Shown one piece after another: positions 5,689 through 12,494 of a stretch of DNA of 64,000 nucleotides. Each line of letters starts with the position of its first letter. The first letter of the stretch is position 1. Under the pieces are notes generated by a model. It was not told where the DNA came from. It ran no database searches and worked only from the letters and a program-made list of their open reading frames with translations. Source of the DNA: an uncultured virus (IMG/VR IMGVR_UViG_3300030372_003518) (taxonomy: Duplodnaviria > Heunggongvirae > Uroviricota > Caudoviricetes); the IMG/VR virus record IMGVR_UViG_3300030372_003518; one strand, given 5' to 3'. The position numbers were made by a program, and so were the translations under genes.

Positions 5689-5692
5689 ATTG

Positions 5693-5700
5693 CAAAGTTA
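5693..5700 (-). promoter_or_regulatory. Bacteroidota -7 promoter element (TAnnTTTG)
   Basis: TAACTTTG. The same motif precedes minus-strand genes at 515, 1836, 32478, 34316, 39781, 46462, 46846, 50452 and 56218. Confidence 0.7.
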
Positions 5701-6085
5701 CAAAAAAATATTAGATATTCAGAGTGTTTGGATAATATACGCATATACGCAGGACGACCCAACAAAAAAAGTGGAAAAAAAATCAGACGGGGGGGGTAAT
5801 TTTTTTGAACGGACAAGCAACATTTTTGGCGTTTTTTAGGTTGTTTAAACAGCCCCCTTAGTAGTTTGTTTAAACGAAGCGGGGTAAGAGCTTTGAGCTT
5901 ATCAGTTAGGCACGCCTAACCTTGCCCCCGTTTAAACCCCTCATCTCCGCCCCAAAGAAAAATAAAGCTCGGGGACAACTCATCTATAACTCATTGAACA
6001 CTAGCAAACAAAGGCAAAACTAACTCAAAACCTTATTTAGAATTAATCTAAATTAGCATTATCTTAAAAATATCCTAAGAATATC

Positions 6086-6116
6086 TTGCGATTGTCAATT
6101 TATCTTTGTAGCTTAC
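6086..6116 (+). promoter_or_regulatory. early promoter (host sigma70, Bacteroidota type)
   Basis: TATCTTTG at 6101-6108, or TTG-N20-TAGCTTAC; lies just before the structured leader and ribozyme array. Confidence 0.55.
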
Positions 6117-6120
6117 GAAG

Positions 6121-6345
6121 TAATTGGAGAAAAGGTCAACTCCATCGGAAAAGCAAAAGACCCGTAAAATACCGAATGAAGCGAGCAGATGATGATGAAC
6201 TTTGACATAGAGAGTTTAAACACTCTCAAAGTGAATTCAGCAACGGGGTAAAAGCTCGTTCAAAAAATGCTACAAAAACAAAGCAACGAAGTAGGGAAAC
6301 TGAAAAGCCCTTTCGATGATTAGCAAATTCACTTACTTAATCAAA
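6121..6345 (+). ncRNA. unassigned multi-stem, pseudoknotted RNA
   Basis: TGGAG/CTCCA, TGAAGCGAGC/GCTCGTTCA, CTTTGA/TCAAAG, GAGAG/CTCTC, CCCGT/ACGGG, AAGTGAATT/AATTCACTT; no ORF in the track. Confidence 0.5.
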
Positions 6346-6361
6346 CATAATTTTTTAGTTA

Positions 6362-6440
6362 ACTCGTCAGGGCGAGTATAAAATAGAGTATTAAGCCCTG
6401 AGCGTTAGCTGATAAAATTTATTTTGTCGGCTATCTTACT
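6362..6440 (+). ncRNA. pistol ribozyme 1 (non-canonical cleavage site)
   Basis: P1 ACTCG/CGAGT; pseudoknot TCAGGG/CCCTGA; TTAAG and GCGT core; P2 AGTA/TACT; 13-bp P3; TCT in place of GGT at the scissile junction. Confidence 0.8.
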
Positions 6441-6459
6441 AACAACTAAAAATTAAATT

Positions 6460-6771
6460 ATGGAAAATGTAATAAAATTTGACCTTAACAAAATGGGGTC
6501 ATCAGATATTCAAAGTATGAACAAAGTTATTAACGCTTACATACAAATTGAGCCGATAAATTATAACTTTTATGGCATTTCAGAAACGGGTTTTAATGAA
6601 AATTCGGGCTATGTTTATATAGCATTAGAAAATCAAATTTCAATATGTTCAGCGTTTAATAATGAAGTTGAATATCTAGTTACAAATTTTGACAATGGCG
6701 AAGAGTTTTTCTTTGAAACTTACGAAGAAGCTAAAGCCAAAAATTTAAAGGTTAATGACATAAGTTATTAA
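6460..6771 (+). CDS. early hypothetical protein
   Basis: 103 aa with an A-rich TIR. Confidence 0.8.
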   Translation: MENVIKFDLNKMGSSDIQSMNKVINAYIQIEPINYNFYGISETGFNENSGYVYIALENQISICSAFNNEVEYLVTNFDNGEEFFFETYEEAKAKNLKVNDISY

Positions 6772-6773
6772 TC

Positions 6774-6840
6774 AATCGTTAGGGCGATTTCAAACAGAGT
6801 ATTAAGCCCTAAGCGTCCCCGATTATCTCGGGGGGTTACT
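6774..6840 (+). ncRNA. pistol ribozyme 2
   Basis: AATCG-TTAGGG-CGATT...AGTA-TTAAG-CCCTAA-GCGT-P3-GGT-TACT, same architecture as the env25 pistol; predicted cut 6835/6836. Confidence 0.93.
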
Positions 6841-6860
6841 ATAACTAAAAATTAAAAATT

Positions 6861-7004
6861 ATGGATATTTTACAAAATTGTAAACCTCAGGGAACATACG
6901 AAAGCTGGAAAAATTGGCTAGCTGATTGTTATAATAAAAATGACTTTTTAGCGACTCATTTTCCTGAGGAATTTAAACTTGACAATGCAAGTATAAAAAG
7001 ATAA
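6861..7004 (+). CDS. small early protein (47 aa); 3' end overlaps pistol 3
   Basis: Hand-translated MDILQNCKPQ...DNASIKR; conserved leader ACTAAAAATTAAAAATTATG. Confidence 0.7.
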   Translation: MDILQNCKPQGTYESWKNWLADCYNKNDFLATHFPEEFKLDNASIKR

Positions 7005-7050
7005 TTAAGCATTGAGCGTTCAGCCCCGTTTAAACGGGGTTGAGGTTTAT
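6977..7050 (+). ncRNA. pistol ribozyme 3
   Basis: P1 ACTTG/CAAGT; pseudoknot CAATG/CATTG; P2 ATAA/TTAT; core TTAAG, GCGT, GGT; predicted cut 7045/7046. Confidence 0.9.
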
Positions 7051-7069
7051 ATAACTAAAAATTAAAATT

Positions 7070-7678
7070 ATGAAAAAATCTAAATTTAGTCGAGAAGATT
7101 ATTTAATTAAAGCGTCTGACATTATGAGGGATTATTTGTTTAAACCTAAGGGCTATAAAGTGCCAAAGGTTGAGCTTTCAGTTTCTTGGGCTACAAGTGG
7201 AAATAGAGCGAGAAACAAAAGCGGGCAAACCTTAGGTATGTGCTTTAATAAAGCGTCAAGCAAAAAGGGAATAAATCAAATCATTATTACCCCTAGCTTA
7301 GACGGGGAAACAATTAAAGGCACGCTTAGAATTTTAGATGTCCTAGCTCACGAACTAGTCCACGCAGTTGACGATTTAAAATCAGGACATAAAAAAGCGT
7401 TCAAAGATTGTGCAACGGCAATAGGTCTAATCGGTCAAATGAGAAGCACCAAAGCGAGCAAAGAATTAAATGAGTGGCTACGCAAAAATATCGTAGATAA
7501 GCTCGGGAAATTTCCGCACGCAGAGGTTACACTTTCAGGTAAAAAGCAAACCACTAGAAACATAAAAGTTTCTTGTGATTGTTGCGACTTTTCTTTTCGC
7601 ACCTCACGAACAAATATAAATACAATTGAAAATTGGGATTGTTTGGCGTGCGATGACGGGAGACTCGATGAATGCTAA
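7070..7678 (+). CDS. SprT-like zinc metalloprotease with C-terminal zinc ribbon
   Basis: LAHELVH HExxH motif, GHKKAFK, and CxxC...CxxC. Confidence 0.8.
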   Translation: MKKSKFSREDYLIKASDIMRDYLFKPKGYKVPKVELSVSWATSGNRARNKSGQTLGMCFNKASSKKGINQIIITPSLDGETIKGTLRILDVLAHELVHAVDDLKSGHKKAFKDCATAIGLIGQMRSTKASKELNEWLRKNIVDKLGKFPHAEVTLSGKKQTTRNIKVSCDCCDFSFRTSRTNINTIENWDCLACDDGRLDEC

Positions 7679-7679
7679 A

Positions 7680-7749
7680 ACTTGTTTGGGCAAGTATAAA
7701 AAGAAATTAAGCCCAAAGCGTCCGAGTTGTTTAAACGACTCGGGGTTTT
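7680..7749 (+). ncRNA. pistol ribozyme 4
   Basis: ACTTG/CAAGT; TTTGGG/CCCAAA; TTAAG; GCGT; P3 with GTTTAAAC; GGT; predicted cut 7745/7746. Confidence 0.9.
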
Positions 7750-7770
7750 ACTAACTAAAAATTAAAAATT

Positions 7771-7863
7771 ATGAAAAACTTTATTGAAGTAGTCGAGAAG
7801 ATTACTCCGTATATTTTAATAGTCATATTCTTATGGTTTATGTTTATGTTTATAACTCTCTGA
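7771..7863 (+). CDS. 30-aa hydrophobic membrane peptide
   Basis: MKNFIEVVEKITPYILIVIFLWFMFMFITL behind the conserved leader. Confidence 0.65.
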   Translation: MKNFIEVVEKITPYILIVIFLWFMFMFITL

Positions 7864-7970
7864 TTATGTATCGGGAGAGGTGGCACGGGTGGACTCAAAA
7901 GAAAGCCCAAATAAAGACAAGAGAGTGGGTTAAATCACTCTCTGACGCTGACGCCAAGCGTTTGAATATT
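7855..7970 (+). ncRNA. unassigned structured RNA in a ribozyme slot
   Basis: GGGT/GCCC, AGAGAGTGG/TCACTCTCT and ACGCT/AGCGT stems; possible pseudoknots TGGC/GCCA and TCAA/TTGA. Confidence 0.5.
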
Positions 7971-8001
7971 AATAAAGAATTAACTATTAAAAAATTAAAA
8001 A

Positions 8002-8211
8002 ATGAGTAAATCAAATTCAGAAATTTCGCAGTTTGGCGGGAAAGTATATACTGAAAAAAATACTACCCCTCAACAAAGACAATATATAATCCGAAAATAC
8101 GCACATCAACATTGTAAAGAGTTTAAAATCGAATTGCGTAAGGGTTATGACTTTGCCGAGACAATTACGCCAAACGGCACACGGGGAATTTCAATTAAAA
8201 AAGTAAAATAA
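8002..8211 (+). CDS. early hypothetical protein
   Basis: 69 aa with an A-rich TIR. Confidence 0.75.
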   Translation: MSKSNSEISQFGGKVYTEKNTTPQQRQYIIRKYAHQHCKEFKIELRKGYDFAETITPNGTRGISIKKVK

Positions 8212-8384
8212 TGGATAAATTTATAATCAATAAATATGTATTTGAAGCAATCGAGCATTTAGAAAGTATTGAAACACAAGAATGCGAAGAAACTGAAAAT
8301 TCAATTTACAAAGCTGAAAAGCTATTGGAGAAAATTCATTTAGAGTTATTTCCAAATCGTTTGAGCGATTCAAAACCACATTAA
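8211..8384 (+). CDS. small early protein (57 aa); 3' end overlaps pistol 5
   Basis: Hand-translated MDKFIINKYV...RLSDSKPH; TAATG coupling to the upstream ORF. Confidence 0.7.
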   Translation: MDKFIINKYVFEAIEHLESIETQECEETENSIYKAEKLLEKIHLELFPNRLSDSKPH

Positions 8385-8423
8385 GCTCAAAGCGTCCACT
8401 CTGTTTAAACAGGGTGGGGTTGT
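8355..8423 (+). ncRNA. pistol ribozyme 5
   Basis: AATCG/CGATT; TTTGAG/CTCAAA; P2 ACA/TGT; core intact; predicted cut 8419/8420. Confidence 0.9.
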
Positions 8424-8444
8424 TTAACTTTAAAAACTAAAATT

Positions 8445-8612
8445 ATGAACGATTTGTTATCACAAGATAAATTTGATGAGTATGTTGCCGTGCAAAAGAG
8501 TGGACTTTATAATATGTTCGACCCTAATGCTAGAGCAATGACAAGTTTATCTAAAGACGAATGGGTGCATATTATACGCAATTACAATGCGTATGACAAA
8601 GCATACTCATAA
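8445..8612 (+). CDS. small early protein (55 aa), DUF5049-like
   Basis: Hand-translated; VQKSGLYNMFD resembles the DUF5049 motif as recalled. Confidence 0.65.
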   Translation: MNDLLSQDKFDEYVAVQKSGLYNMFDPNARAMTSLSKDEWVHIIRNYNAYDKAYS

Positions 8613-8685
8613 GTGGACTATGCCACTCTAAAGAGACATTAAGCATAGAGCGTAAAGGGGGTGTTTAAACATCTCCTTTGGTTGT
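8612..8685 (+). ncRNA. pistol ribozyme 6
   Basis: AGTGG/CCACT; CTATG/CATAG; ACA/TGT; core intact; predicted cut 8681/8682. Confidence 0.9.
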
Positions 8686-8705
8686 ATAACTAAAAATTAA
8701 AAATT

Positions 8706-9155
8706 ATGAAAATCACTTACAATAAAGAGGAAAAACTTCAGTTAATACGCTATCTTTTTTGCACTAATCACGACTATTTTAGAGAGAATTATTTGCTCTT
8801 AGATTGGAACGAAAAAGATTATAAAGCAAGCAAAACTCGTAAAGACAAAAGTTACGAAGACACTCTTTTAAATATGCTCAAAAATGGGTATGAAATAATC
8901 TTACAAGATGATTATGTCCCTGAAGACGAAGAGGGCGAAATTGTTGCTCGATTTAATCTCAAAGAATTGTTTAATAATCTTGATAATCCTCAAATTGATG
9001 ACAATTATTACTCCTCACTAGAAAGTTTTAGTGATGAATTATTATCAGTAATGCTTAGCATAAATAAGGATTATGATACTAATTGGGATTCGGTAACAAT
9101 GACACGAATTGCGTCCGTTCTCTTTTATCACGAAAATACTTGGACACGAAAGTAA
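8706..9155 (+). CDS. early hypothetical protein
   Basis: 149 aa; stop codon lies inside hammerhead stem I. Confidence 0.8.
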   Translation: MKITYNKEEKLQLIRYLFCTNHDYFRENYLLLDWNEKDYKASKTRKDKSYEDTLLNMLKNGYEIILQDDYVPEDEEGEIVARFNLKELFNNLDNPQIDDNYYSSLESFSDELLSVMLSINKDYDTNWDSVTMTRIASVLFYHENTWTRK

Positions 9156-9218
9156 ATCTGATGAGGTCTTATAGACCGAAACTAGAGGGCGTTTAAACAA
9201 TGCCCCTAGTCATTTACT
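9151..9218 (+). ncRNA. hammerhead ribozyme 1 (type I)
   Basis: AGTAAAT-CTGATGA-GGTC/GACC-GAAA-stem III-GTC-ATTTACT; predicted cut after C9211. Confidence 0.95.
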
Positions 9219-9235
9219 AACTTAAAACTAAAATT

Positions 9236-9418
9236 ATGACAAATTTACAAATAACATTTACTCAAGAAGAGCTTGAAAACTTACGGCATTTACTTATGAC
9301 AATAGAAATGTTGGGTGCATTACCTAAAAGTATTCTTGATAAATACGATTTAGACGGGGATAAAATTAGTAGTATATCTACCGCTATAAATAATCAAATT
9401 ATATATTGTGTAAAGTAA
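9236..9418 (+). CDS. early hypothetical protein
   Basis: 60 aa between hammerheads. Confidence 0.75.
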   Translation: MTNLQITFTQEELENLRHLLMTIEMLGALPKSILDKYDLDGDKISSISTAINNQIIYCVK

Positions 9419-9488
9419 ATCTGATGAGACCTATAATACATAGAAAGGTCGAAACGGGGAAGTTGTTTAAACAACCCCGTCATTTACT
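9414..9488 (+). ncRNA. hammerhead ribozyme 2 (type I)
   Basis: CTGATGA-GACCT/AGGTC-GAAA-CGGGG/CCCCG-TC; stem I AGTAAAT/ATTTACT; predicted cut after C9481. Confidence 0.95.
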
Positions 9489-9505
9489 AACTAAAAATTA
9501 AAATT

Positions 9506-9619
9506 ATGACAAAATCTGAACAATTTGATTTCTTTCATACTATGCTTCAATATATTGAAGACCAAGCGTATGACGGGTGTGAAATAGCTAAAGAATTAAG
9601 TGAGAGATACTACAAGTAA
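9506..9619 (+). CDS. small early protein (37 aa)
   Basis: Hand-translated MTKSEQFDFF...SERYYK; conserved leader. Confidence 0.7.
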   Translation: MTKSEQFDFFHTMLQYIEDQAYDGCEIAKELSERYYK

Positions 9620-9682
9620 ATCTGATGAGTCCTAGTGGGACGAAAATAAGAGAGCGTTTAAACATTCTCTTATTCATTTACT
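9615..9682 (+). ncRNA. hammerhead ribozyme 3 (type I)
   Basis: CTGATGA-GTCC/GGAC-GAAA-stem III-TTC; predicted cut after C9675. Confidence 0.95.
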
Positions 9683-9702
9683 AATAACTAAAAACTAAAA
9701 TT

Positions 9703-9972
9703 ATGGAAGATTATATAAAATTTGGGTTTGAAACCCAAAAAGAGTGGGACGCTCTCTCTGATATAGAAAAAAGAGATGAAGCGTATGAATATTACCTAGA
9801 TAGAAGTTTGTATGATTTAGGAGATAACGGCTTACTAGAGGGTTGGTATCAAGATATTCACGACGCTATGTCAAGAAATTCTGTCCCCGAAGAAATTAAA
9901 CAAAGAGTATTTCAAACAATTGATTCGGGACACGGAATAGGCAAAGGCAGTTTCACTCGTAAACAATTCTAA
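9703..9972 (+). CDS. early hypothetical protein
   Basis: 89 aa. Confidence 0.8.
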   Translation: MEDYIKFGFETQKEWDALSDIEKRDEAYEYYLDRSLYDLGDNGLLEGWYQDIHDAMSRNSVPEEIKQRVFQTIDSGHGIGKGSFTRKQF

Positions 9973-10035
9973 GTAAATCTGATGAGTCTTTATGAGACGA
10001 AAGGGAGAATGTTTAAACATTCTCCCTCATTTACT
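9972..10035 (+). ncRNA. hammerhead ribozyme 4 (type I)
   Basis: CTGATGA-GTCT/AGAC-GAAA-GGGAGAATGTTTAAACATTCTCCC-TC; predicted cut after C10028. Confidence 0.95.
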
Positions 10036-10052
10036 AACTTAAAACTAAAATT

Positions 10053-10373
10053 ATGAATAAATCAAATATATATATTAAAGAACAAATAGTAACCACAAAG
10101 CTAATCGGAAAGGTTGGCGTAGATAGTGGGACAATTTGGATAGGCGACCCTTGTTACATTTTATCAGGTGAAAGACCAAAAGCACTCGGTAAAGATTGGA
10201 GTGAATTAGGTCATAAAACATTTAAGGACGGCAAGTGTCAACTACCTATATCATTTAACTTTGATATGGGACACGAAGGACTCGGTGTTATGAGTTCTAC
10301 CAAATATGGAGACGGGGTATATCCCGTATATATGGTTGGAGATAATGACGGAATGTATATAGATTTCACTTAA
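10053..10373 (+). CDS. DUF4241-like protein
   Basis: VGVDSGTIWIGDPCY and YGDGVYPVY motifs. Confidence 0.65.
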   Translation: MNKSNIYIKEQIVTTKLIGKVGVDSGTIWIGDPCYILSGERPKALGKDWSELGHKTFKDGKCQLPISFNFDMGHEGLGVMSSTKYGDGVYPVYMVGDNDGMYIDFT

Positions 10374-10392
10374 TAAATCATTATTTGAAAGA

Positions 10393-10467
10393 AAGTCGTC
10401 TGCACGACTTTAAAGAGACATTAGGTGCAGAGCGTAGAGAGAGTGTTTAAACATTCTCTCTGGTTGT
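10393..10467 (+). ncRNA. pistol ribozyme 7
   Basis: AAGTCG/CGACTT; TCTGCA/TGCAGA; TTAGG (A32G variant); GCGT; GGT; ACA/TGT; predicted cut 10463/10464. Confidence 0.9.
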
Positions 10468-10486
10468 TTAACTTAAAACTATAATT

Positions 10487-10792
10487 ATGAAAATAAATAA
10501 CGAAAAAATAGAAAAAATACATATAAAATCAATTGAAGCCGAGCCACTTATTAAGAGGTTTCAACAAGAAGAAATTGAAAATGAAAGTTTACTGCAAAGT
10601 TTTGATGAGGAGTTATGCGACCTTATGGAAAAATATATAGATGTAAACCACAAGTATAGAGATTGTATGCCCTTTTTTGATGATAAGGATATTGTTGAGG
10701 ATTTTAATTATGCCTTAAACATATTACAAAGATTAATAAAAGAAACTTATAAAAAAGGGGTCATTAAAGAAGATACCATATTAGGAGAATAA
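10487..10792 (+). CDS. early hypothetical protein
   Basis: 101 aa. Confidence 0.8.
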   Translation: MKINNEKIEKIHIKSIEAEPLIKRFQQEEIENESLLQSFDEELCDLMEKYIDVNHKYRDCMPFFDDKDIVEDFNYALNILQRLIKETYKKGVIKEDTILGE

Positions 10793-10808
10793 TTTAAAAG
10801 TAAATAAA

Positions 10809-10871
10809 GTAATTCTGATGAGGATTCAATATCCGAAAATAAGGGTTGTTTAAACGCCCTTATTAAATTAC
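10809..10871 (+). ncRNA. hammerhead ribozyme 5 (type I)
   Basis: GTAATT/AATTAC stem I (compensatory change relative to HH1-4); CTGATGA-GGAT/ATCC-GAAA; TTA triplet; predicted cut after A10865. Confidence 0.92.
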
Positions 10872-10889
10872 AAACTTAAAACTATAATT

Positions 10890-11273
10890 ATGAAAAATGA
10901 TTTTAATAGCACGGACTCAACAACAAATGTTGCCGTGCTAGAGGACAAAAAATGGGTTATGCTCGGACAAGAGGATACCGATTTTGATAGCTCAGCTACC
11001 TACGGAGATAAAAACACTTTGGTATGTGATAAATTAGATACCGAAGACGGATACGAAGTATGGTGGTTGCACACTTACGATAAGAATGACATTGAGCCTG
11101 ACGAAATGTTGAGCGATGAGCATTCTTATATGGAAGAAGTAGAGGATTGTTTAAAAGAAATGACTGACCGATACGGACAAGCTATAAATAAAGTTATCAA
11201 TTACACGATTGAGGTAGATGACTTTAAAGAAATGGTCAACCAAGCTAATGAGATATTAGCAGAGGTTGATTAA
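10890..11273 (+). CDS. highly acidic early protein
   Basis: 127 aa, D/E-rich. Confidence 0.8.
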   Translation: MKNDFNSTDSTTNVAVLEDKKWVMLGQEDTDFDSSATYGDKNTLVCDKLDTEDGYEVWWLHTYDKNDIEPDEMLSDEHSYMEEVEDCLKEMTDRYGQAINKVINYTIEVDDFKEMVNQANEILAEVD

Positions 11274-11292
11274 TTTTTAGTTTATAAGTGAG

Positions 11293-11329
11293 AAAAGAGG
11301 GGGTGTTTAAACATCTCCTCTTTTTTTTT
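11293..11329 (+). terminator. intrinsic terminator closing the ribozyme operon
   Basis: AAAAGAGGGGGTGTTTAAACATCTCCTC followed by 9 T. Confidence 0.85.
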
Positions 11330-11362
11330 GTCTAAAAATTAGGAATATTAAAATATTATCAC

Positions 11363-11370
11363 TAGATTTA
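11363..11370 (+). promoter_or_regulatory. putative -7 promoter element
   Basis: TAGATTTA(C) after the terminator; preceded by AAATATTATC, as is the element at 15108. Confidence 0.45.
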
Positions 11371-11396
11371 CAAAAGTTAATCAAAATAATAACTAA

Positions 11397-11588
11397 ATGT
11401 TCATTGAAATGCTGAGACTAATAAGAGGAAAGATTAAAAGGGTGTTTGCCAAAAGGGAAATATCTTATGCCTAATTAACATAATACGCTTTCAGTGGGTT
11501 GCAACAATAAAATTAGGGACGCCTTTAATAAAATGTAATTCGCTTCACAACATAAACGGGTAACGCCGTCTTATTAGTTTCGGTTTTT
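11397..11588 (+). ncRNA. structured RNA/leader overlapping a 25-aa ORF (11397-11474)
   Basis: 16-bp closing stem 11411-11426/11569-11584; CCTAATT/AATTAGG; pseudoknot CATTGAAA/TTTCAGTG. Confidence 0.55.
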
Positions 11589-11603
11589 CATTAAAAATAA
11601 AAT

Positions 11604-12164
11604 ATGAAAAAAATATTATATCACGGGACAAGCACAAAGTATCTTGACAAGATATTAAAGAAAGGACTGACCCCTCGCAAGAGTTTGGGTGTTAAGTCTA
11701 ATTGGGACGCAGAGTCAAGAGACGATATGATTTATTTAACGAGTGCATACGCACCTTACTTTGCACAAGCGTGTGTGGGGTCGAATGGTGGAGACCCGCT
11801 CGTATTAGAAGTCGAAGTAGAGAGCGACAACCTCTACCCTGACGAAGATTTCTTAGAACAATACTTACGCAATAAACATATTACTAAGGGAGATATATAT
11901 GAGAGAACAAAGTTTTATAAAGATAACTTGGAAGTGTTTAAACACTATACTAAAAAGAGTTTAAACGGACTCGGTAATGCGTGTCATAAAGGAATTATAG
12001 ACCCAAAAAGAATACGAAGATATGTAGTGTTGGACGCTAGTAAGATAATAATGTATAGCGACCCGACAATAACAAGAGCGAACTATATGTTACTTGGACA
12101 TCATTACAACGAGATATGTAGCGAGTATATATGGAACACTAAAGAAGTCCAATTAAATAAATAA
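11604..12164 (+). CDS. ADP-ribosyltransferase-fold protein (Tpt1/KptA NAD-binding-lobe-like)
   Basis: LYHGTS...ILKKGLTP...IYLTS...PLVLEV motifs. Confidence 0.65.
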   Translation: MKKILYHGTSTKYLDKILKKGLTPRKSLGVKSNWDAESRDDMIYLTSAYAPYFAQACVGSNGGDPLVLEVEVESDNLYPDEDFLEQYLRNKHITKGDIYERTKFYKDNLEVFKHYTKKSLNGLGNACHKGIIDPKRIRRYVVLDASKIIMYSDPTITRANYMLLGHHYNEICSEYIWNTKEVQLNK

Positions 12165-12175
12165 AATATGTAGCT

Positions 12176-12328
12176 ATGCAGATTGATTTAAAAGAAGTAA
12201 TTCAAAAGCTCAGAGACCTAAGAGACAACACTCCGTGTGTAGAGGATTCTCATACGCATTGTGGGTGTGAGAAATTTGATGAAATAATAGATGACTTAAT
12301 AAGAATACATTATGCAGATAAATTCTAA
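12176..12328 (+). CDS. small hypothetical protein (50 aa)
   Basis: Hand-translated MQIDLKEVIQ...HYADKF with Cys/His residues. Confidence 0.5.
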   Translation: MQIDLKEVIQKLRDLRDNTPCVEDSHTHCGCEKFDEIIDDLIRIHYADKF

Positions 12329-12494
12329 ACAAATAAAAAAGATAGTAAAGGAGATAGAGCGTTTAAACGCTCTCCCGATAAATCTTGTTGACTCTCCAAA
12401 GAGAGAAGTCAGGAAGATTGACAACCTATACTCTATGCAAGTATGGGCAATGGAAGAATTGTGGAAAGCATTAGAGATTAATAAAAATAAATAA
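12312..12494 (+). CDS. hypothetical protein
   Basis: 60 aa, on the operon strand. Confidence 0.55.
   Translation: MQINSKQIKKIVKEIERLNALPINLVDSPKREVRKIDNLYSMQVWAMEELWKALEINKNK

Follow-up and report, generated by a model that had tools for sequence, protein, structure and literature searches.

The leader boxA of bacterial rRNA operons, which is associated with NusB-S10, NusA, NusG, SuhB and S4, is a 12-nt box that follows a promoter and hairpins within an untranslated leader. Published consensus sequences are UGCUCUUUAACA for E. coli and AUGAUCUUUGAAA for B. subtilis, the latter of which is described as binding NusB (PMC13753749), and G2, C5, U6 and U8 of the box have been named as key NusB-S10 contacts (PMC3177189; PMC2800207). 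In E. coli, a boxA no more than 100 nt before a gene is reported to repress its translation, and lambda nutL to do so at ~200 bp, probably via an RNA loop to polymerase (PMC5725501). Pistol ribozymes (Rfam RF02679), whose association with phage genes has been described, cut at a modestly conserved GU junction according to the same account (PMC4604425).

The lambdoid nut site combines boxA with boxB and is used with the N protein, nutL lying before the N gene. The lambda leader is cut by RNase III, which is thought to free N from the RNA loop tethered to the polymerase. The locus considered here, positions 6105-6345 of the genome of an uncultured phage, is a genuine non-coding leader, situated between a Bacteroidota-type promoter box and the first pistol ribozyme. 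It is rather likely to be the untranslated leader of the first early operon, in which boxA would load host NusB-S10 and pistol 1 would cut the leader off the mRNA. Its layout, equally, seems to be that of an rRNA-operon leader, with a promoter, short hairpins and then boxA, and it probably works like an rrn boxA leader, a membership assigned from sequence and position. The promoter box, untranslated leader, conserved boxA-like site, variable 3' module and pistol are present in the sequence as follows:

6082..6089, plus strand, alternative promoter box TATCTTGC of the TAnnTTGY type, from which the start would be ~6094
6101..6108, plus strand, Bacteroidota sigma-A -7 box TATCTTTG, with a predicted start site at 6113
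6113..6175, plus strand, 5' hairpin region (6113-6123, 6125-6144, 6145-6148/6172-6175)
6184..6209, plus strand, conserved core, matching the divergent homolog L246 at 24 of 26 nt
6196..6208, plus strand, boxA-like site TGAACTTTGACAT, a putative NusB-S10 site by sequence and position
6210..6227, plus strand, hairpin with a GTTTAAAC palindrome cap (the same cap as on ribozyme stems), not in L246 or L241
6268..6345, plus strand, exchangeable 3' module, instead of which runs X10 and X14 have 115 other letters
6362..6438, plus strand, pistol ribozyme 1 (38.2 bits; predicted cut 6435/6436)
6460..6771, plus strand, first early gene (103 aa, without family)
11399..11410, plus strand, second boxA-like site GTTCATTGAAAT, in a second non-coding early leader stretch after a terminator-like hairpin

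The window, that is, the whole stretch analysed, holds 64,000 of the 65,967 bases of the virus record. Protein family scans revealed that the phage genome encodes GroEL, Sak, helicase and terminase, and DNA near-identical to the window is present in marine runs. The promoter boxes and AT-rich gene starts suggest a host among the Bacteroidota. From ~6100 the plus strand carries an operon of small genes punctuated by seven pistol ribozymes, all above the Rfam gathering score, and five hammerhead-like cores. Several of the small early proteins scanned have no family, and a protein search found no viral relatives of the neighbour proteins at 6460 and 7070. The early protein at 11604-12164 weakly matches PHROG families resembling RNA 2'-phosphotransferase (E 7e-4) and possibly adopts an ADP-ribosyltransferase-like fold. 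A non-coding block at the late/early strand switch (5690-5850), present in 68 family loci, is a candidate packaging or genome-end site. The sequence-only reading had described the leader as free of open reading frames, and this was borne out, there being no ORF of at least 40 aa on either strand from 5839 to 6460.

Homologs of the leader were collected in two rounds. A pattern for pistols with the GTTTAAAC cap yielded five related phage loci, one of which (L238) has the leader in the same place; the core common with L238 then yielded eight metagenome loci, six of them true homologs, L243 and L244 being dropped as chance matches. The leader of L247 is identical to that of the window, L242 and L245 differ by 8 changes per 263 nt, L246 is the only divergent full-length homolog, and L248 and L249 are short leader forms like L238 and L241. 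The short forms lack anything 3' of ~6210 and occur ahead of at least two different pistols. When contigs of four runs were compared with the leader, the X10 and X14 strain was found to keep it to 6267, and one further short form was seen. The same leader in L242, L246, L238 and L248 is followed by different first genes and pistol copies, which shows cassette exchange at the ribozymes. Pattern, profile and neighbour-protein searches found no homologs of the leader outside one small clade, nor did nhmmer find any in 80 GroEL-linked loci; a pistol was present in 3 of 50 GroEL-linked records. Searches built on the helices noted earlier returned chance matches (at least 120 stretches, 80 contexts of which were read, 30, and 48), apart from one already known homolog among the 48.

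The main promoter box has the form TAnnTTTG, which also precedes the leader in L242, L246 and L241. In flavobacterial promoters this box occupies -12 to -5 (PMC9723704), which would place the beginning of transcription at ~6113. Such a start would leave the 8-bp closing helix 6105-6112/6269-6276 outside the RNA, since 6105-6112, the first 8 nt of the stretch originally noted, overlap the promoter box and precede the start. This helix was rejected: if the main box is used its 5' strand belongs to the promoter DNA, three of its eight pairs are kept in L246, and its 3' strand is replaced in X10 and X14. The alternative box at 6082 matches motif SM5 of the promoter study (PMC9723704), is kept as TATCTTGT in L242, and was not seen in L246 or L241; a start from it would put the 6105-6112 strand inside the RNA.

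The conserved core, which is boxA-like, had been omitted from the sequence-only reading. In sliding blocks compared with L246, positions 6184-6209 form the peak, all other blocks having 8-21 of 26 identical nucleotides, and the core survives in short forms that have lost the rest of the leader. The boxA-like site is promoter-proximal and lies on the transcribed strand in untranslated RNA. G2, C5, U6 and U8 are all kept in TGAACTTTGACA at 6196-6207, where purine 9 is also present, and the site differs from the B. subtilis boxA at 2 of 13 positions. The A at position 4 departs from the gammaproteobacterial consensus GYTCTTTAANA. BoxA was more than half paired in single-sequence folds of nascent prefixes (mean unpaired 0.32-0.48) and unpaired in a consensus fold of four sequences.

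Comparison with Bacteroidota drew on nine rRNA loci from plasmid records, no Flavobacteriaceae rRNA leader being among them. Their leader boxes were of the GTTCTTTGA or GATCATTGA type, and spacer boxes were found in seven of the eight loci holding a 16S end (GTTCTTTGACAT in 4/8, GATCTTTGACA in 3/8). The window site matches two spacer boxes of the GATCTTTGACA group at 12 of 13 nt, and these may not represent the boxA of the host. An A at position 4 occurred in 0/9 of these loci.

A 19-base core pattern, applied to one genome per species, gave 12 matches, of which 10 looked coding and two (L301 and L307) fell in Saccharibacteria 16S rRNA leaders, where the 16S start motif follows 76 and 91 nt later. 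The boxA-position sequence in these two leaders is identical to that of the window over 12 nt and sits between the promoter and the 16S gene; NusB is encoded by both genomes, as it is by a Bacteroides control genome. A third leader of the same order, L344, has T at the one differing place. The L301 leader was also observed to share 22 nt (L301:600-622, L307:600-622) with the L246/L241 core, including 11 nt upstream of the boxA G. A 20-nt pattern matched 46 of 201 genomes of the Saccharibacteria phylum at two mismatches, with frequent matches to reversed controls and no clear enrichment, and it matched only 4 of 251 genomes of the order; many of the Saccharibacteria genomes sampled may lack rRNA genes.

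Further boxA-like sites were sought in the family leaders, using block 5690-5850 as the anchor of the early leader in 68 loci, 53 of which were distinct and long enough. The pattern G[TCA][TA]C[AT]TTGA[AC]A gave 14 matches in 13 of the 53 leaders against 0.68 expected and 0 on the reverse strand, and a narrower pattern gave 10 matches in 40 leaders against 0.36 expected; because the pattern was shaped after the sites had been seen, the excess of canonical sites is firm, that of the variant weaker. Eleven of the 14 matches lie outside the clade of the window, and a T follows all 14, though T is not in the pattern. A canonical boxA occurs in 10 other family leaders at a similar place, and in Tenacibaculum phage Gundel_1 the first promoter box is followed by GTTCTTTGAAAT. 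Forty of the 53 leaders have no match; in four ribozyme-rich loci of this kind (L236, L237, L239 and L240) the first gene directly follows the promoter. The phage genome itself contains two pattern matches in all (1.3 expected on both strands), each on the transcribed strand in early non-coding sequence. The region around the second, 11283-11603, consists of a terminator-like hairpin with a 9-T tail and then a ~270-nt non-coding stretch holding the 11399 site. Long non-coding early leaders with a canonical boxA and hairpins of their own were seen in other family members, namely L071, L073, L036, L039, L015 and L017. The leaders of L036, L039, L071 and L073, scanned or otherwise covered, had no Rfam match, and kinship of the GAACTTTGACAT leader of L071 was rejected as borderline only, 21 and 38 of 1000 shuffles being as good.

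The sequence-only reading had proposed that the leader is a multi-pseudoknot RNA, on the basis of a series of complementarities. A sequence and helix scan recovered every one of them where it had been placed; two also appear below as parts of the long-range pairings:

6125/6140, plus strand, TGGAG/CTCCA
6134/6159, plus strand, GGTC/GACC
6145/6172, plus strand, TCGG/CCGA
6160..6249, plus strand, long-range pairing of 6160-6165 with 6243-6249, the partner being absent in short forms
6161/6243, plus strand, CCCGT/ACGGG
6177/6254, plus strand, TGAAGCGAGC/GCTCGTTCA, 9 bp with one bulged G
6199/6226, plus strand, ACTTTGA/TCAAAGT
6210/6222, plus strand, GAGAGT/ACTCTC
6229..6343, plus strand, 9-bp pairing 6229-6237/6326-6334, within the loop of hairpin 6317-6343
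6229/6326, plus strand, AAGTGAATT/AATTCACTT
6317/6338, plus strand, TGATTA/TAATCA

Three pairs of these helices share bases and so cannot all form in full: GACC with CCCGT at 6161-62, CTCTC with TCAAAG at 6226-27, and TCAAAG with AAGTGAATT at 6229-31. The pairings were not better than those of shuffled controls, as the minimum free energy of -43.9 corresponds to z -0.83, with 40 of 200 shuffles equally good. Watson-Crick helices of at least 5 bp numbered 25 against 23.3 in shuffles, those of at least 6 bp 6 against 5.9, those of at least 8 bp 2 against 0.44 (32 of 500 shuffles had as many), and those of 9 bp 1 against 0.11 (53 of 500 shuffles). Nor was conservation of the fold supported. By an automatic alignment whose 3' half is uncertain, none of 14 tested helices is complete in L246 and seven have at most half of their pairs there; the ending of short forms at ~6210 and the replacement of 6268-6345 in X10 and X14 also speak against conservation. 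Homologs retain 5' hairpins with different pairs, hairpin 6210-6227 keeps one or two of its six pairs in L246 and L241, and the four-sequence consensus fold contains short 5' helices only, with the core left unpaired. Covariation is anecdotal because the homologs amount effectively to two divergent lineages; weak compensatory change was found in the two long-range pairings and not in the remaining helices. The multi-pseudoknot fold as listed was thus rejected, being not above shuffles, made of overlapping helices and mostly broken in L246. Some folding of the leader is likely, and the elaborate fold is strain-specific or optional.

Covariance models of Rfam 15, applied to 6105-6345, gave no family match even at E up to 10, setting this ~250-nt non-coding phage RNA apart from the structured RNAs catalogued there and excluding a known Rfam ribozyme or riboswitch class. 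K-turn, box C/D, SAM-I and hammerhead-like readings of GAUGA repeats were rejected, having no Rfam support and an unconserved partner motif.

Release by pistol 1, which had also been proposed, fits the layout: cleavage would free a piece of ~320 nt (predicted 6113-6435, ~323 nt) that includes most of the pistol. Its junction is C-U in the window instead of G-U, with G in L242 and in X10 and X14, so that release of the leader is less sure in the exact strain of the window. T-rich tails follow several of the pistol stems. The five hammerhead-like cores (CTGATGA...GAAA; 9158, 9421, 9622, 9979 and 10815), none above the Rfam cut-off, lie between early genes and are interleaved with pistols (9140-10870). 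The genome contains 29 copies of the palindrome GTTTAAAC against 2.4 expected, 19 of these within 5843-12361; it caps ribozyme stems, is also found upstream of the promoter and inside genes, and is present in 12-26 copies per locus in relatives L236-L240. It may serve, at the DNA level, as a protein site or as a point of cassette exchange.

An unlikely alternative to the boxA leader is that pistol 1 releases a free-standing structured RNA of ~320 nt with its own job against host defence, as decoy or scaffold; its protein-binding core would be the conserved block, and the boxA likeness would be incidental. Consistent with a discrete RNA, as the sequence-only reading had envisaged, a metatranscriptome contig of run X20 (172 nt, depth 3.9) covers 6137-6267 together with 39 nt from the variant module, leaving the rest of the 1121-nt stretch compared uncovered; against it, this is the sole RNA evidence, could be DNA, and belongs to a class of data, contigs, that cannot prove transcription. 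In alignment-free comparison L246 has counterparts of both long-range pairings at close to the same offsets: that of the 6160 pairing is 6 bp long, differs in its bases and lies where expected (3-7% of shuffles), that of the 9-bp pairing, which is 10 bp in L242, is likewise 6 bp (15% of shuffles), and the joint p against shuffles is 0.0125 for a pair chosen after looking. Furthermore, only one of the eight L242 substitutions breaks a listed pair, and strains carry differing 3' modules rather than simple loss. Against these points stand folding z scores of -0.07 to -1.26, no better than shuffles, across all four leaders, the helices broken in L246, the short forms before different pistols, and the finding of homologs in one small clade only. 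The decoy, scaffold and ribozyme ideas gained no positive evidence.

A distinctly doubtful reading would have a fixed boxA platform carry a swappable RNA payload. Strains would exchange folded 3' modules (window, L246, X10/X14 type, or none) like early genes, and pistol 1 would free boxA-bearing RNA in the first minutes of infection, which could soak up NusB-S10 and curb rRNA synthesis, or counter host defence.

It is quite improbable that the conserved block binds a phage-coded regulator, as an RNA- or DNA-level operator just past the early promoter, instead of host Nus factors. In its favour are the several small early proteins without family, a position 4 atypical for Bacteroidota, and the conservation that continues for 12 nt upstream of boxA, a stretch left unaccounted for by boxA itself. 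It would leave unexplained the canonical boxA of the other family leaders, the 11399 site and the rRNA-leader match; also against it, the block occurs only once in the phage genome. Least probable of all is a neutral spacer or a conserved micro-ORF (MMMNFDI..., 6189-6251), the latter rejected because, even with a core that begins with ATG and a frame open for 20 codons in the window and 13-20 in L241, L246 and L242, its four invariant codons show no synonymous change, amino-acid changes fall in codons 2-3, X10, X14 and X20 lose the frame through a 1-nt deletion at 6231, and the AT-rich start context of real early genes is absent.

In the favoured reading, that of a boxA leader, host sigma-A RNA polymerase would start near 6113, as judged from the box, and host NusB-S10 would bind boxA (6196-6208) as it emerges, forming with NusG and NusA an rrn-type elongation complex. 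This complex would carry transcription through ~5 kb of small genes, seven pistol and five hammerhead ribozymes; the ribozymes are read from the sequence, and from them we infer a need for read-through. As a counterpoint, Nus factors are described as dispensable for countering Rho at the rRNA loci of E. coli (PMC5725501). A Rho-type C-over-G skew is absent from the early region. Finally, pistol 1 would cut the leader and, by analogy with lambda N, free the first gene from the polymerase-tethered RNA loop; ribozyme cleavage downstream of boxA and upstream of that gene would open the loop. Folded RNA 3' of boxA would be an optional, strain-variable module.

The leader resembles described systems in part. 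In contrast to rrn leaders, the phage boxA heads a ribozyme-cut, protein-coding operon, has A at position 4, and is accompanied by extra conserved sequence upstream (12 nt) and optional variable RNA downstream. Shared with rrn leaders is the order of promoter, hairpins and box, the promoter box lying 88-103 nt from boxA in the phage leader and 46-75 nt from it in three Bacteroidota rRNA leaders. Like lambdoid nut, it has an early-leader boxA, which lies ~250 nt upstream of the first gene with structured RNA in between, as compared with ~200 bp in lambda (PMC5725501). However, the phage hairpin after boxA (6210-6227) is unconserved, and an N-like protein was not found among the early proteins scanned, where short N-like proteins can escape profiles; with no conserved boxB and no N found, the leader does not, by its sequence, amount to a complete lambdoid nut site. 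Where lambda uses RNase III, cleavage of the phage leader would fall to a pistol ribozyme. The pistols themselves, of which the first has C at the usual G, adjoin the boxA leader and are not the finding. Among titles and abstract openings of the open-licence literature, no paper was found that combines boxA with ribozyme-punctuated phage operons.

If the boxA reading holds, lytic phages of marine Bacteroidota would use the host rRNA elongation machinery through an RNA signal alone, and self-cleaving ribozymes would stand in for host nucleases. It would also provide a way to test whether rrn-type antitermination works in Bacteroidota, and would suggest what phage pistol ribozymes may do.
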